Positions 21,357-51,350 of a stretch of DNA of 64,000 nucleotides are shown here, piece after piece. The notes beneath the pieces were generated by a model. The model had not been told where the DNA came from. It saw nothing but the letters and a program-made list of their open reading frames with translations, and searched no databases. Each line of letters begins with the position of its first letter. Within the stretch, counting starts at the first letter, position 1. The DNA is from an uncultured Candidatus Saccharibacteria bacterium (lineage in GTDB: Bacteria > Patescibacteriota > Minisyncoccia > Phycocordibacterales > CAYSCM01): assembly GCA_964429815.1 (NCBI GenBank), contig CAYSCM010000001.1, forward strand, positions 256,001 to 320,000, in the 5' to 3' direction. A program made the translations under genes and the position numbers.

Positions 21357-21878
21357 ATGCTCGAACTCATCAAAAAACAAAACGATGCGCACAAGGCGCT
21401 CTCCTACAAAAACGTAATGCAGACACCAAAGATCGAGAAGGTCATCGTCTCGATCGGCGTTGGCTCTGTGAAGGACAAGAAAAAATTTGACGTCATAACA
21501 GACCGCCTCGCGAAGATCACGGGCCAAAAGGCCGCTCCGCGCGCCGCCAAGAAATCGATTGCAACCTTTAAGCTGCGCCAGGGGGACGTCGTCGGGTTCC
21601 AAATCACGCTCCGAGGCTCGCGCATGAAGAATTTTCTCGAACGCCTTCTCGCGGTGGCGCTTCCACGTACCCGCGACTTCCGTGGGCTTGATCCTAAGGC
21701 TATCGACGAGATGGGTAACCTCACCATCGGCATTAAGGAGCACACTATTTTCCCTGAAACCTCTGACGAGGATCTCAAGGACGTCTTTGGATTTGCCGTG
21801 ACGGTGGTTACTACCGCCAAAAGTCGCGACGAGGCACTGAAGTATCTCACCTACCTCGGATTTCCTTTCAAGAAATAA
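21357..21878 (+). CDS. rplE: 50S ribosomal protein L5
   Basis: L5 core; start trimmed to MLELIKK. Confidence 0.9.
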   Translation: MLELIKKQNDAHKALSYKNVMQTPKIEKVIVSIGVGSVKDKKKFDVITDRLAKITGQKAAPRAAKKSIATFKLRQGDVVGFQITLRGSRMKNFLERLLAVALPRTRDFRGLDPKAIDEMGNLTIGIKEHTIFPETSDEDLKDVFGFAVTVVTTAKSRDEALKYLTYLGFPFKK

Positions 21879-21949
21879 AAAGCCCTAGCTTTCAGAGCAA
21901 TTTGTATTTTTTGGGCTTCAGCTTAGGTCGAGCTTTCGGACCGGAGCAG

Positions 21950-21979
21950 TTGACAATCTCCACTATTATATAGTATAAT
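21950..21979 (+). promoter_or_regulatory. consensus sigma70 promoter (TTGACA-18-TATAAT) driving DGR target gene
   Basis: TTGACA 21950-21955, TATAAT 21974-21979; ~135-nt leader to AAGGAGGT RBS. Confidence 0.6.
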
Positions 21980-22117
21980 TCTTTCCATAACACTAGTTCC
22001 TTGATTTGGTTTTGCCCTGGCAGGAAGAGCTTTCGTTGAGAGAATTTCCTGCTGTGGCAAAGCCCGTTCGGGCCGAGTCTGAACAGCACTGTAAAAACGC
22101 TCAAAGGAGGTAATCTC

Positions 22118-22759
22118 ATGAGCGAACAACAGATCGCCAAGCTCGCCGGCGCATTGGTGGAGCACCAACGGCATTTCGGTGCCATGCCAACCGAGGATCG
22201 CCAGTGGGCGATCCAGAATACTGAAGCGGCCATCGGTCTATTCGCCGTTGCAGTGAAGAACCGCGACAACGGCCAGACACAGAAACCAAGGACGCTCTTG
22301 AAGTTCGTGGCGAGCGTAAGCATCGCCGCGATCGAAGGCTTCAAAGTCTCCGAGAACTTCGAGGAGGGGAAGTTGGGCCCGGTCAGAATCTATTGGCTCG
22401 GCGACGACTTCAAGAAGCACTTCGGCCGCAAGACCGAGAGCGCTTTGGAAGCAGTCGAGCTGAAGGTTCACACTCTGACCAAGGCTTCGCTCGATGCCCC
22501 GATCATCGCGGAACTCGCGGGCAATGCGGAGATCACGATGGGCCAGTTCTTCGCTCTGCTATCGAAGCAGGGCAAGGGCGAGAGCGGGCCGCTCCTTACG
22601 AACGGCTACGCCAACATCGCCTACATCCGCGACGACGAGGGCGTCCTATGGGCGGTGGACGCCCACTGGCACGCCGGCCGCGGGGGCTGGGACGTCTACG
22701 CCGACTCAGTCGCCTACCCGGGCGAGTGGGACCGGGGTCGCCAGGTTCTTTCCCGCTGA
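22118..22759 (+). CDS. DGR variable (target) protein, 212 aa, VR at C-terminus
   Basis: strong AAGGAGGT RBS; C-terminal 36 codons form VR; no signal peptide visible. Confidence 0.8.
   Translation: MSEQQIAKLAGALVEHQRHFGAMPTEDRQWAIQNTEAAIGLFAVAVKNRDNGQTQKPRTLLKFVASVSIAAIEGFKVSENFEEGKLGPVRIYWLGDDFKKHFGRKTESALEAVELKVHTLTKASLDAPIIAELAGNAEITMGQFFALLSKQGKGESGPLLTNGYANIAYIRDDEGVLWAVDAHWHAGRGGWDVYADSVAYPGEWDRGRQVLSR
22649..22756 (+). repeat. DGR variable repeat (VR)
   Basis: 92/108 identical to TR; all 16 substitutions map to TR adenines (11 AAC and 2 GAC codons). Confidence 0.9.
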
Positions 22760-23097
22760 TTCTCGAACCCTTAAGCCCTCGGCCTGAGATCCTTTGACCC
22801 TCTGAAACTTTGCGAAGCAATTTGCGAAGGAGTAGGAGGGTCTTCTATTTTTTATTTTGATATAGTAAGACGTGAGGAGTGCTACTGATGCGGCGGCTAC
22901 GGCTTCCGCACAGCGCCTCGAGTATCTGTATCGCCAGAATCACGTCGGCTAAGGCTTGCGCGAGAGCGCGTGCAGGTACTCTTAAAAAAGATAAAGAATC
23001 GGTGCCTCATGCTGGCGGACTTCAAGGTCCCACATACGATACAGCTCGGAGAGTATTCGATGGGTGGTGTTATTGATGGCTTAAGGCACACAACGGA

Positions 23098-23206
23098 TGG
23101 GCGGTGAACGCCAACTGGAACGCCGACAACGGGGGCTGGAACGTCAACGCCAACTCAGTCGACAACCCGAACGAGTGGAACCGGGGTAACCAGGTTCTTT
23201 CCCGCT
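23098..23206 (+). repeat. DGR template repeat (TR), 11 AAC codons
   Basis: TGGGCGGTGAACGCCAACTGGAACGCCGACAACGGGGGCTGGAACGTCAACGCCAACTCAGTCGACAACCCGAACGAGTGGAACCGGGGTAACCAGGTTCTTTCCCGCT. Confidence 0.9.
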
Positions 23207-23570
23207 ATTCTTTTCTTCCCCCGCCCTTCGGCGGGGTTTTGCTTTCGAGGCCCCTCTTCCATCCCCCAACCATCCGACCCAGTTCGTGCACTTTTTCCGA
23301 GAGAGCAGCATACCTCTTTGTGTCAAGCGCGCGCAGCTCCCATGCGACTCGTAAAAGGAATTTCGCGGTGTCTATTTTTTTGAGTGTGTGAAAAAGTGTC
23401 GGCACTTTTTCACCCGAGCCCTGATAACTTGCGGTGAAGAGAAGTTCCAGCGTGTCTATGAGCGAAAAGTCGATGCGCTCACCGAGTGTATACCGGGCGT
23501 TTTTTGGAAAGTTGTTCCTGCACTCATGCCAGATTTTATATACTGCAACAGCATGTTCAATAACCGGCAA
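23205..23570 (-). CDS. avd: Avd-like accessory variability determinant (four-helix-bundle / 23S rRNA IVS protein family)
   Basis: 121 aa, basic; FPKNARYTLGERIDFSLIDTLE motif resembles FPKxExYxLxxQxxRAxxS of PF05635; stop codon abuts TR end; opposite strand to TR/RT. Confidence 0.6.
   Translation of the reverse strand: MPVIEHAVAVYKIWHECRNNFPKNARYTLGERIDFSLIDTLELLFTASYQGSGEKVPTLFHTLKKIDTAKFLLRVAWELRALDTKRYAALSEKVHELGRMVGGWKRGLESKTPPKGGGRKE
23218..23246 (+). terminator. GC hairpin plus T-run immediately 3' of TR
   Basis: CCCGCC-cttc-GGCGGG then gttttgcttt. Confidence 0.5.
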
Positions 23571-23590
23571 AAGTCGTTGGGGGGGTCGCT

Positions 23591-24592
23591 TTGAGGTCGC
23601 AACTCGCTCATACGTATGACGATATCATCTCGCTAGAAAATCTCCTTGCCGCATGGCAGGAATTCGTGCGCGGGAAGCGCAAAAAATGCGACGTGCAAGA
23701 GTTTCAGTTTCGGCTCGTGGACAATATTCTTGAGCTCTACCGTGACTTGAAAGAGAAAACATACACGCATGGGCCGTACCACCCTTTTAAAATAAGCGAC
23801 CCTAAACCCCGCGACATCCACAAGGCGAGCGTACGCGACCGGCTCCTCCACCACGCAATATATCGGAAACTCTATCCATTCTTCGACAAAATTTTCATTG
23901 CCGATTCGTACTCATGCAGGAAAGGCAAAGGAACACACAAGGCGATGAACCGTTTTCGTTCCTTTGCATACAAGGCGAGCTTAAATCACACAAAAACGCT
24001 TTGGGTGCTCAAGTGCGACATCAAAAAGTTCTTTGCATCAGTCGATCAGCATGTTCTCCTGGAGATTATTAGGCGCTGCATTTCTGACACCGACATCCTC
24101 TGGCTCATCGAGCGAGTCGTGCAGAGTTTCAATCCCAGCAGGGAGGGCACGGGTCTCCCGCTCGGCAATCTCACCTCGCAGCTTTTAGTGAATGTGTATA
24201 TGAACGAGTTTGACCAGTTTGTGAAGCGCACCCTCAAAGCGAAATACTACATCCGTTACGCCGATGATTTTGTGATTTTCTCGCAAGATGCGAAATGGCT
24301 CCAACAAATATGCAAATATATCAGCATATTCTTACGTGAACGGCTGAAACTCGAATTGCACCCTAATAAAGTATCGATCACAACGCTCGCATCCGGTATC
24401 GATTTTCTCGGCTGGGTGAATTTTCCTGATCATCGCGTGCTACGCACCTCGACAAAGCGGCGGATGTTGAAGCGAATGACTGGTGAGCAATCTAAAGAGA
24501 TCATCAAACCGTATTTAGGGCTTCTTCAACATGGGAACAGCAAAAAGCTGCAATTGAAAATCTTGTTTGACACAGCAGAGGCAATCAAGTAA
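23591..24592 (+). CDS. DGR-type reverse transcriptase
   Basis: 333 aa; [20 protein letters not shown] (DGR [ILV]GxxxSQ in place of group II QGxxxSP), [14 protein letters not shown] box. Confidence 0.9.
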
Positions 24593-24734
24593 GCTCATCC
24601 CACAAAGCCGAGTAGGGCTTTTCTTTTGGCAAGTGCTAAACCGTCTACGCGGTCGCATACTCCCAGAAGAAAGGGAAGAATACTTCTCTTTTTTCACTCC
24701 ACACGTGGGGGATTGCCAGAAGTTCGTATACCAC

Positions 24735-24920
24735 ATGGCAAAAACCTCAGTCATCGTTCGAAGCAAACGAAAGCCCAAGTTTAAGTCTCGGGTTGTTCGT
24801 CGCTGTTTCAAGTGCGGACGCAAGCGCAGCTACATGCGCGACTTTGACCTGTGCCGCATCTGCTTCCGCGAACTCGCGAACGAAGGCATGATCCCGGGCA
24901 TTAAGAAAAGCTCCTGGTAA
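24735..24920 (+). CDS. rpsN: 30S ribosomal protein S14 type Z (zinc-binding)
   Basis: 61 aa, CFKCGRK...CRIC zinc ribbon. Confidence 0.9.
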
Positions 24921-38780: not shown

Positions 38781-38812
38781 AAAACCGGCACAAAGCCGGT
38801 TTTTCTTTTGCT
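38781..38812. terminator. terminator after ssrA
   Basis: AAACCGGC-acaaa-GCCGGTTT with flanking A/T runs. Confidence 0.7.
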
Positions 38813-38813
38813 G

Positions 38814-39183
38814 TGGAGATGGGCGGAATCGAACCGCCGTGCAAAATAGGGTAAACGCGTTTCTACACTATCTAGTCTGCTCTCAATTCTCGAAGTTATG
38901 CGTTAAGAGCAAACAAAATCGCATACCTTCCAGTCTCGTAGTTTAGACGCGCTCGTGAGACACCAAATGCGTCGAGTCCGGAAATATTACACCCAAGAGT
39001 GCCTAACAGACTTCAACAAGCTGGATGGGATTAGGCCGTCGCGTAAGCGAAGGAGAAATCCTTTGCCGAAAAATACGGCGAAGTAACTGATTTTGCAGTT
39101 ATTTTTTCAGGATTTTAAGGAAGGTCCTGACTTCCACAGTGCACGTTAGTTTACGGATTATTTTGTCTAGGCCGATCATCCCC
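38814..39183 (-). ncRNA. ssrA: tmRNA (transfer-messenger RNA)
   Basis: 5' GGGGATG / 3' CATCTCC-A acceptor with G3-U70 wobble, T-arm GGCGGTTCGATTCCGCC, internal tag ORF GCA AAG GAT TTC TCC TTC GCT TAC GCG ACG GCC TAA (AKDFSFAYATA*); adjacent smpB. Confidence 0.75.
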
Positions 39184-42732: not shown

Positions 42733-42805
42733 GGGCGTGTAGCTCAACGGTTAGAGCACCAAGCTTATACCTTGGTGGTTCCTGGTTCGAATCCAGGCAC
42801 GCCCA
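42733..42805 (+). tRNA. tRNA-Ile with anticodon TAT (UAU)
   Basis: cloverleaf: acceptor GGGCGTG/CACGCCC, D-arm GCTC..GAGC, anticodon stem CCAAG/CTTGG loop CTTATAC, T-arm CCTGG TTCGAAT CCAGG; no encoded CCA. Confidence 0.8.
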
Positions 42806-51261: not shown

Positions 51262-51350
51262 GCGGAGAGGGTGGGATTTGAACCCACGGTCCAGTTTCCC
51301 GGACTCCGCATTTCGAGTGCGGTGCCTTCGACCAACTCAGCCACCTCTCC
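51262..51350 (-). tRNA. tRNA-Ser (anticodon CGA)
   Basis: GGAGAGG acceptor, anticodon loop CTCGAAA, long variable arm GTCCGGGAAACTGGACC, T-arm GTGGG TTCAAAT CCCAC; followed by long imperfect hairpin 51205-51260. Confidence 0.85.

Follow-up and report, generated by a model that had tools for sequence, protein, structure and literature searches.

A diversity-generating retroelement between ribosomal protein genes of an uncultured Candidatus Saccharibacteria bacterium, with a structured and conserved RNA preceding the template repeat

The window analyzed here, a 64,000-nucleotide (nt) stretch of the forward strand of an uncultured Candidatus Saccharibacteria genome (assembly GCA_964429815.1, contig CAYSCM010000001.1, positions 256,001 to 320,000; all coordinates of the window are counted from its first letter), contains a group of genes and repeats with the hallmarks of a diversity-generating retroelement (DGR). 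These comprise, in order, a single upstream target gene with a C-terminal variable repeat (VR), a template repeat (TR) on the plus strand, the accessory variability determinant gene (avd) on the minus strand and a reverse transcriptase (RT) gene on the plus strand. The core features are as follows.

22118 to 22759, plus strand: target (variable protein) gene, 213 aa, with an N-terminal three-helix region and a C-terminal domain that ends in the VR
22648 to 22757, plus strand: VR, the final 36 codons of the target, whose variable codons are the positions that vary among near-identical homologues
22741 to 22757, plus strand: segment like an initiation of mutagenic homing (IMH) site, 17 nt identical in VR and TR past the last A-site difference
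22770 to 22788, plus strand: short imperfect hairpin 11 nt past the target stop, CTTAAGCC/GGCCTGAG, read from the sequence and the alignment
23097 to 23206, plus strand: TR, non-coding, 28 adenines
23205 to 23570, minus strand: avd, 121 aa, diverging from the RT gene
23591 to 24592, plus strand: DGR reverse transcriptase gene, 333 aa, TTG start; RVT_1 match at 4e-26

Ungapped alignment of the VR with the TR, at an offset of 449, reveals a 110-bp direct repeat with 94 of 110 positions identical, which a repeat search returns as the sole long direct repeat of the region. All 16 mismatches lie at adenines of the TR and none at any of its C, G or T positions; the altered adenines are replaced in the VR by G (nine), C (five) or T (two). 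Were 16 mismatches placed at random, the probability of all of them falling on A would be 4.4e-12. In the open reading frame (ORF) of the target, 22118–22759, they affect 11 of 11 AAC and 2 of 2 GAC codons, and the identity between the repeats collapses directly beyond both of their edges. The sequence-only reading, a first inspection of this DNA made without database searches, had described the same 16 differences in every AAC and GAC codon, which the alignment reproduces, and its TR and VR peptides match the translation exactly. The repeat that it reported at 108 bp stands as a repeat but measures 110 bp, and the target that it gave as 212 aa has 213 residues. Widening the alignment to 110 bp brings in no non-A mismatch, the homology ending sharply on both sides. 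Given that an NNC codon can specify 15 amino acids, the theoretical repertoire from the AAC codons alone is 15^11 = 8.6e12, in keeping with the earlier estimate of more than 10^12. A scan of both strands of the 64-kb window, in which only the non-A positions of the TR were scored, returned no further VR. The TR lies 385 bp upstream of the RT gene, with no conserved ORF over it.

Immediately past the 17-nt segment shared by the two repeats their sequences split, with TGATTC in the VR and TATTCT in the TR. The assignment of this segment as IMH-like is by position, and its function would be that of the BPP-1 model summarised in PMC5758913. The short hairpin at 22770–22788 may, tentatively, represent an inverted repeat downstream of the IMH; relatives possess a longer hairpin at this place, and RNAalifold did not predict the one in the window.

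The best match of the RT among PDB sequences is Brt of BPP-1 (8ub7_A; E 3.6e-45, 158 bits, residues 8–296 aligned), with the LGNLTSQ of the RT aligned to IGSLTSQ of Brt and its YADD to YMDD. Pairwise matches of this kind, rather than a tree, support the placement of the RT with the DGR RTs, in which the motif [I/L/V]GxxxSQ replaces the QGxxxSP of group II RTs, and the motifs on which the sequence-only reading had based its DGR call are present as quoted. The product of avd matches the Pfam family PF22296 bAvd with 52.8 bits, above the cut-off of 40; against the NCBIfam model DivGenRetAVD it reaches 73.4 bits, below the cut-off of 80, and it has no match among PDB sequences. An Avd-like gene had been placed between TR and RT with its strand unstated: the position is correct and the strand is minus, the gene being separated from the divergent RT gene by a gap of 20 bp, with its stop codon overlapping the last bases of the TR. 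The RT, Avd and TR are all intact in the window. With A-only differences between the repeats, an RT of the DGR type, an Avd and a target, the window very probably holds a complete, intact chromosomal DGR, as had first been proposed from the sequence.

For comparison, four genomic relatives with the full cassette (L004, L007, L010 and L012) were assembled together with 80 metagenomic RT relatives of 61–71% identity, drawn from at least 588 candidates. The order and orientation seen in the window recur in these four genomic relatives and in all members of the set of 80 with enough upstream sequence, avd being inverted and adjoining the RT gene in every related locus for which this could be read. 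In most related loci the VR lies about 450 nt upstream of the TR on the same strand, and the TR adjoins the avd stop codon in most of the about 55 related loci with a detected TR/VR pair. Of the 965 TR/VR mismatches counted in 50 related loci, 891 (92%) fall on adenines of the TR. In L012 (1151–2135), the RT matches as two overlapping pieces, which may reflect a frameshift or an assembly error, and 23 of the 27 TR/VR differences are at adenines.

The arrangement TR-(avd)-RT, in which avd runs in reverse, corresponds to architecture B3 of the survey by Wu et al. (2018; PMC5758913), where it accounts for 90% of the set of DGRs from the candidate phyla radiation (CPR) and is nearly absent elsewhere. 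With the CPR/DPANN B3 DGRs described there, the element shares its order, the reverse avd, an upstream target with a C-terminal VR, an AAC-rich TR and a Patescibacteria host. Hence, it is a further member of a known and abundant CPR class, in a group of bacteria where DGRs supply about 80% of all RTs (PMC8632793). The similarity to the DGR of phage BPP-1 (mtd-avd-TR-brt) encompasses an RT that is homologous over its full length with fingers and palm motifs aligned, Avd, A-specific TR/VR differences, a C-terminal VR and an identical GC-containing segment at the VR/TR end that is followed by divergence. However, BPP-1 is phage-borne, whereas the element of the window is chromosomal and has avd inverted and downstream of the TR. 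A further difference concerns the interval of 339 nt between the VR and the TR, in which the window possesses a structured RNA 5' of the TR, a feature that is not described in the part of the B3 survey text considered here (PMC5758913). The features of this interval and of the TR 3' flank are listed below.

22858 to 22866, plus strand: extended -10 promoter-like motif for the template (DGR) RNA, TGATATAGT
22873 to 23096, plus strand: conserved structured RNA domain directly 5' of the TR, about 225 nt, seven helices
22988 to 22999, plus strand: A-rich strand, the proposed primer side, AAGATAAAGAAT, complementary, apart from a single bulged U, to the 11 nt past the TR
23207 to 23217, plus strand: U-rich strand directly 3' of the TR, ATTCTTTTCTT, pairing with 22988–22999
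23219 to 23240, plus strand: GC hairpin CCCCGCC-CTTC-GGCGGGG and then TTTT, 12 nt past the TR, terminator-like

Five relatives whose RT proteins share only about 63% identity are 82% identical over the stretch from the -10 motif to the TR, and 39 of 56 related loci have a TGnTAnnnT motif upstream of the RNA domain at near-constant spacing. The domain is alignable in 44 loci, for which RNAalifold yields 44 pairs in seven helices, 37 of the pairs with compensatory changes. Standard pairs fill 92.8% of the alignment cells, as against 40–49% when the partners are slid by 1–3 columns, and the covariation score is 0.744, where slid partners give 0.13–0.17 and shuffles 0.28; in 500 shuffles, the observed values were never attained. 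The window retains 40 of the 44 base pairs. Its helices include 22889–22898/22901–22910, 22943–22950/22953–22960, 23017–23020/23027–23030 and 23044–23051/23058–23065, along with a covarying closing helix of 12 bp, 23002–23013/23078–23089, which starts two nt past the A-rich strand and whose 3' strand ends 7 nt ahead of the TR.

A covariance model of the 3' half of the domain (R1), with which 624 kb were searched, recovers 66 matches, one per DGR locus except for a second, reverse-strand match in L035. All but this last are on the RT strand just upstream of the TR, and about 25 of the loci are outside the set from which the model was built; the window matches at 22970–23097 with 109.9 bits, and loci with orphan targets (see below) gave no match. 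The second match in L035 (1530–1608, minus strand) is located at the contig end and suggests a second DGR nearby in inverted orientation. A 65-aa ORF over the domain (22879–23076) was considered as a gene and rejected on the basis of its lack of a Pfam match, the covariation of the helices and indels that are not multiples of three.

Rfam 15 has no family matching the domain in the window or in 17 related loci; the sole sub-threshold match, to RT-15, scores 16 bits against a gathering score of 82 (E 0.5) and falls outside the best-conserved half of the domain. The Rfam RT motifs (RT-1 to RT-19) are likewise structured RNAs next to bacterial RT genes, RT-10 being the TR-to-RT spacer of BPP-1 (Weinberg et al. 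2017, PMC5737381). All of them stay below their gathering scores, both in the window and in the 17 relatives, and RT-10 has no match in the window even at E values of up to 5. The RNA domain ahead of the TR is listed in no RNA-family library; it may have been mentioned earlier in the CPR DGR literature.

The A-rich strand at 22988–22999 (AAGAUAAAGAAU) and the U-rich strand at 23207–23217 (AUUCUUUUCUU) would bring the RNA ahead of the TR into contact with its 3' flank. In 30 of 44 loci, an equivalent duplex begins 0–5 nt past the point where the TR and VR cease to match, and from locus to locus its two strands change in concert (AAATGAAGA/TCTTCATTT, AATGAAGC/GCTTCATT and AAATAAAGT/ACTTTATTT), with compensatory pairs in AAAUGAAGA/UCUUCAUUU, AAUGAAGC/GCUUCAUU, AAAUAAAGU/ACUUUAUUU and GACAGU/ACUGUC. 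Cognate duplexes have a mean of -7.6 kcal/mol versus -5.7 kcal/mol for non-cognate ones, and with a tighter flank these values are -7.26 and -4.72 kcal/mol, no permutation out of 5000 being as low in either case; related sequences inflate such permutation tests, the compensatory changes being the stronger evidence. By contrast with the A-rich strand, the 155 nt past the hairpin, which are antisense to avd, have no locus-specific complementarity to the TR 3' flank (-11.13 vs -11.16 kcal/mol, with 2657 of 5000 permutations as low).

Relatives keep a hairpin at this place past the TR, and one compensatory change is seen in it (CCCCG/CGGGG to CTCCG/CGGAG). Its role may be to terminate the template RNA, to bind Avd as a stem-loop, or to do both; stem-loops just downstream of the TR have been described as putative Avd-binding elements in 207 DGRs, including those of the CPR (bioRxiv 10.1101/2023.10.23.563531). 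The avd stop (CTA, TCA or TTA on the plus strand; 23205–23207 in the window) lies in the last bases of the TR or in the U-rich pairing strand, in the relatives as well. Thus, one short stretch serves as protein stop, template boundary and strand of the RNA duplex.

With regard to variation, the records for this strain contain a single VR sequence, present on three contigs and in the NCBI genome; the 90% cluster has a single member, and the exact target protein is present on a 501,704-bp NCBI contig. A pattern with N at every TR-A position found no same-strain VR variants in the JGI metagenome contigs. As assemblies collapse such variation, the absence of variants says little for or against activity; equally, with no variants of the VR of this strain found, its current activity is unproven. 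Inspection of nine clusters of target homologues (at least 90% identity) shows that their variable columns are mostly within the last 40 residues, with 18 of 20, 11 of 12, 8 of 9 and 11 of 12 in individual clusters, the two clusters with the greatest divergence giving 13 of 21 and 16 of 38, and that these columns coincide with the positions of AAC codons. At the level of the family, diversification of the VR thus has good support.

In BPP-1, the priming strand (Sp 53–56, from A56) and the stop-duplex strand (Sp 59–70) are both downstream of the TR, the former pairing with the TR 3' end and the latter with a segment just upstream of the TR (bioRxiv 10.1101/2023.10.23.563531). In the window, the pairing partner of the TR 3' flank is instead upstream, with about 225 nt of covarying RNA before the TR and only 12 nt with the hairpin and U-run past it; the TR-to-RT interval, where a spacer RNA of the BPP-1 type would be expected, is occupied by the antisense avd and lacks an RT-10 match. 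These differences suggest that, unlike in BPP-1, the priming and stop elements are upstream of the template. On this basis, we advance the tentative proposal, to which we would give something short of an even chance, that the template RNA of the window and of the whole CPR B3 clade could be a permuted version of the BPP-1 DGR RNA, with the priming strand and the stop helix both placed upstream of the TR, within the covarying domain. Parts of this arrangement may already have been noticed by earlier authors, who would have read them in another way.

Transcription boundaries, cDNA priming and homing would, as we infer them, take the following form. A template RNA of about 370 nt would be transcribed from its own extended -10 promoter (start at about 22873) to the hairpin and U-run (about 23240) that lie 12 nt past the TR, where the RNA would end in the permuted model too. 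In that model, the duplex 22988–22999/23207–23217 would position the primer for cis-primed reverse transcription, and the helix 23002–23013/23078–23089 would stop cDNA synthesis at the TR 5' end. The RT, together with Avd, would copy the TR to cDNA with misincorporation opposite adenines, as in the Bordetella phage model, and the cDNA would then replace the VR and recode up to 13 codons (11 AAC and 2 GAC) at the C-terminus of the 213-aa target.

A layout closer to that of BPP-1 is also possible, albeit somewhat doubtful: the transcript might read through the hairpin, with the avd-antisense region acting as the priming spacer and the 5' domain and its pairing serving only as a stop duplex or folding scaffold. 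The TR and RT share a strand, so that co-transcription is possible, and the region past the hairpin is constrained by the coding of avd, such that conservation of RNA there cannot be judged. Such a layout, however, has to contend with the fact that locus-specific complementarity is found in the 5' A-rich strand and not in the 155 nt past the hairpin. Further, the duplex is formed at the TR 3' end, where reverse transcription must begin, whereas a stop is needed at the 5' end, and it is the 12-bp covarying helix that ends just ahead of the latter. The hairpin with its U-run past the TR and the lack of a match to Rfam RT-10 also count against it.

Two more general objections apply to the element as a whole. 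It could be structurally intact but quiescent, or even a fossil, with a VR that was diversified once and is now fixed and a cassette simply carried along in the ribosomal operon. The single VR on record for the strain and the failure of a search allowing any base at the A sites to find a variant are compatible with this, as are the reports of signs of recent activity in 50–75% of DGRs and of lower activity in cellular than in phage DGRs (PMC8632793, citing Roux et al.). Nevertheless, all ORFs are full length with their catalytic motifs, the RNA domain retains nearly all of its pairs, the TR and VR lack the non-A differences that drift would add, and the variation in sister clusters is restricted to the VR, which together make a quiescent element the unlikely case. 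The other objection, that the RT comes from a group II intron, a retron or a defence system and that an unrelated event duplicated the gene's 3' end to give the repeat, starts from the observation that the top NCBIfam score of the RT is to a group II RT/maturase model (TIGR04416). This score of 153 bits is far below the cut-off of 300, and the NCBIfam library seems to be without a DGR-RT model, hence the rank of the group II model. The remaining group II, retron and defence RT (DRT) models are below their cut-offs too (66 bits against 235 for the best retron model). Among PDB sequences, group II RTs attain at most 78 bits, about half the score of Brt, and retron RTs about 25 bits (E 7.6e-5 or worse); likewise, Rfam finds no group II intron or retron RNA in the window. 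For a plain duplication, mismatches confined to A (P ~4e-12) and an adjacent Avd would be unexpected. This origin was accordingly ruled out, its probability being vanishingly small, and the interpretation as a DGR is retained in what follows.

The DGR is set among genes of the ribosomal spc operon and is accompanied by several signals of transcription.

21357 to 21878, plus strand: uL5 gene (rplE), left neighbour; Pfam Ribosomal_L5 and L5_C
21950 to 21979, plus strand: promoter-like site ahead of the target gene, with TTGACA and TATAAT 18 nt apart; 12 of 12 matches to the sigma-70 consensus
21980 to 22117, plus strand: 5' leader of the target gene, with hairpin arms 22008–22026/22046–22064
22796 to 22857, plus strand: terminator-like element of the target gene, stem GACCCTC (22796–22802)/GAGGGTC (22836–22842) and then a T-rich run
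24604 to 24627, plus strand: terminator-like hairpin past the RT gene, upstream of rpsN
24735 to 24920, plus strand: uS14 gene (zinc type, 61 aa), right neighbour; Pfam Ribosomal_S14; followed by uS8 and uL6 (Pfam S8 and L6)

The uL5 and uS14 genes are normally adjacent. Here, a cassette of 2.86 kb interrupts their junction, with uL14, uL24 and uL5 directly upstream and uS14, uS8 and uL6 directly downstream in the Pfam annotation. In comparison with the CPR B3 DGRs, the cassette is thus itself enclosed by ribosomal genes, those of uL5 and uS14, and does not enclose any, and none of the genes for uL5, uS14, uL24, uS8, uL14, uL6 and uS17 is found within 5 kb in about 85 related DGR loci. A DGR in this exact placement, between uL5 and uS14, was not found in the literature, with the possibility that it is mentioned in work on CPR DGRs. 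Terminator-like hairpins are present past uL5, the target gene, the TR and also the gene for the RT, and no promoter-like site was found between the terminator-like hairpin of the RT gene and rpsN. A 15-nt inverted repeat flanks the cassette (21873–21887 and 24613–24627); considered as transposon ends, it was judged to be instead two halves of terminator-like hairpins. The G+C content falls from about 0.56–0.60 to 0.44–0.49 across avd and the RT gene (23200–24600), as against 0.55–0.64 in the target and the flanking ribosomal genes. In the whole window, Rfam matches above threshold are limited to a tmRNA gene (93 bits) and two tRNA genes (38811–39183, minus strand; 42733–42805, plus strand; 51263–51350, minus strand).

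Alignment of homologous target genes shows a TTGACA..TATAAT-like pair at the equivalent place upstream of them. The hairpin of the leader is an inverted repeat with 19-nt arms that are 79% complementary (pattern GCC.CAGC.../...GCTG.GGC). A leader of about 135 nt is kept upstream of homologous targets (L002, L004, L005, L007, L009 and L011), even in the absence of an adjacent DGR or RT, and the 5' leader of the target may be a regulatory one. At the other end of the gene, the terminator stem is kept in 10 of 10 aligned target loci and is supported by RNAalifold; a GC hairpin with a T-run stands ahead of the DGR-RNA promoter in most related loci.

The target protein matches no Pfam or NCBIfam family, and a profile of its family has no match among PDB sequences. 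An AlphaFold2 model from an alignment of 56 sequences is confident (mean predicted local distance difference test score, pLDDT, 90.8) and shows three N-terminal helices (residues 3–47), joined by a disordered linker to an alpha/beta domain that starts near residue 60 and takes up the rest of the chain. A Foldseek search with this model against the PDB gave no match with E < 0.6. In the model, the C-terminal domain weakly resembles a C-type lectin; compared with the C-type lectin variable proteins of other DGRs (TvpA of Treponema denticola, PDB 2y3c, and the FGE-sulfatase-type domains), the predicted fold is only weakly alike. The sequence has no hydrophobic segment (maximal Kyte-Doolittle 19-residue mean 1.38), no membrane helix and no evident signal peptide.

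Among 56 distant homologues of the target, the scaffold LWAV.A.W...GGW.V.A.SV..P..W..G.QVLSR is kept and the AAC-coded positions vary. The family comprises 4099 representative clusters at E <= 1e-3 and 816 at E <= 1e-30, with named homologues from Candidatus Kaiserbacteria, Adlerbacteria and other Patescibacteria; with more than 4000 clusters at 50% identity the family is very large, but Pfam has no entry for it. Homologues in L002 (6001–6627) and L005 (5265–5906), and also in L008, L009 and L011, are flanked by HIT and RecJ genes and have no RT or avd within 5–6 kb; their C-termini are VR-like, and they share the 3' terminator region of the target. Such RT-less homologues may be served remotely by a DGR located elsewhere in the genome, or may be orphans. 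A separate protein of 926 aa (P0142) contains five tandem copies of the weakly C-type-lectin-like C-terminal domain of the target (profile positions 56–213).

As a DGR, the element is of an ordinary and well-described kind; what is unusual is its site in the ribosomal operon and its uncurated RNA domain. It adds one example to a class of which thousands have been catalogued from CPR genomes, and its value is as a reference: the case is clean and wholly intact, the differences are confined to A, and all of the parts fit within 2.7 kb. Its place in the spc operon raises the question of whether the expression of the DGR is coupled to growth, and the presence there of a hypermutation cassette that brings a consensus promoter and terminator-like sites of its own raises that of how the downstream ribosomal genes are expressed. 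To our knowledge, the mechanism by which DGRs prime and stop cDNA synthesis has so far been worked out only for the phage prototype, the RNA of which differs in layout. The RNA domain offers an entry point to an uncurated but strongly supported RNA of the CPR DGR clade, and the covarying RNA 5' of the TR would provide a concrete, testable model for the priming and stopping of cDNA in the commonest DGR architecture of the CPR.

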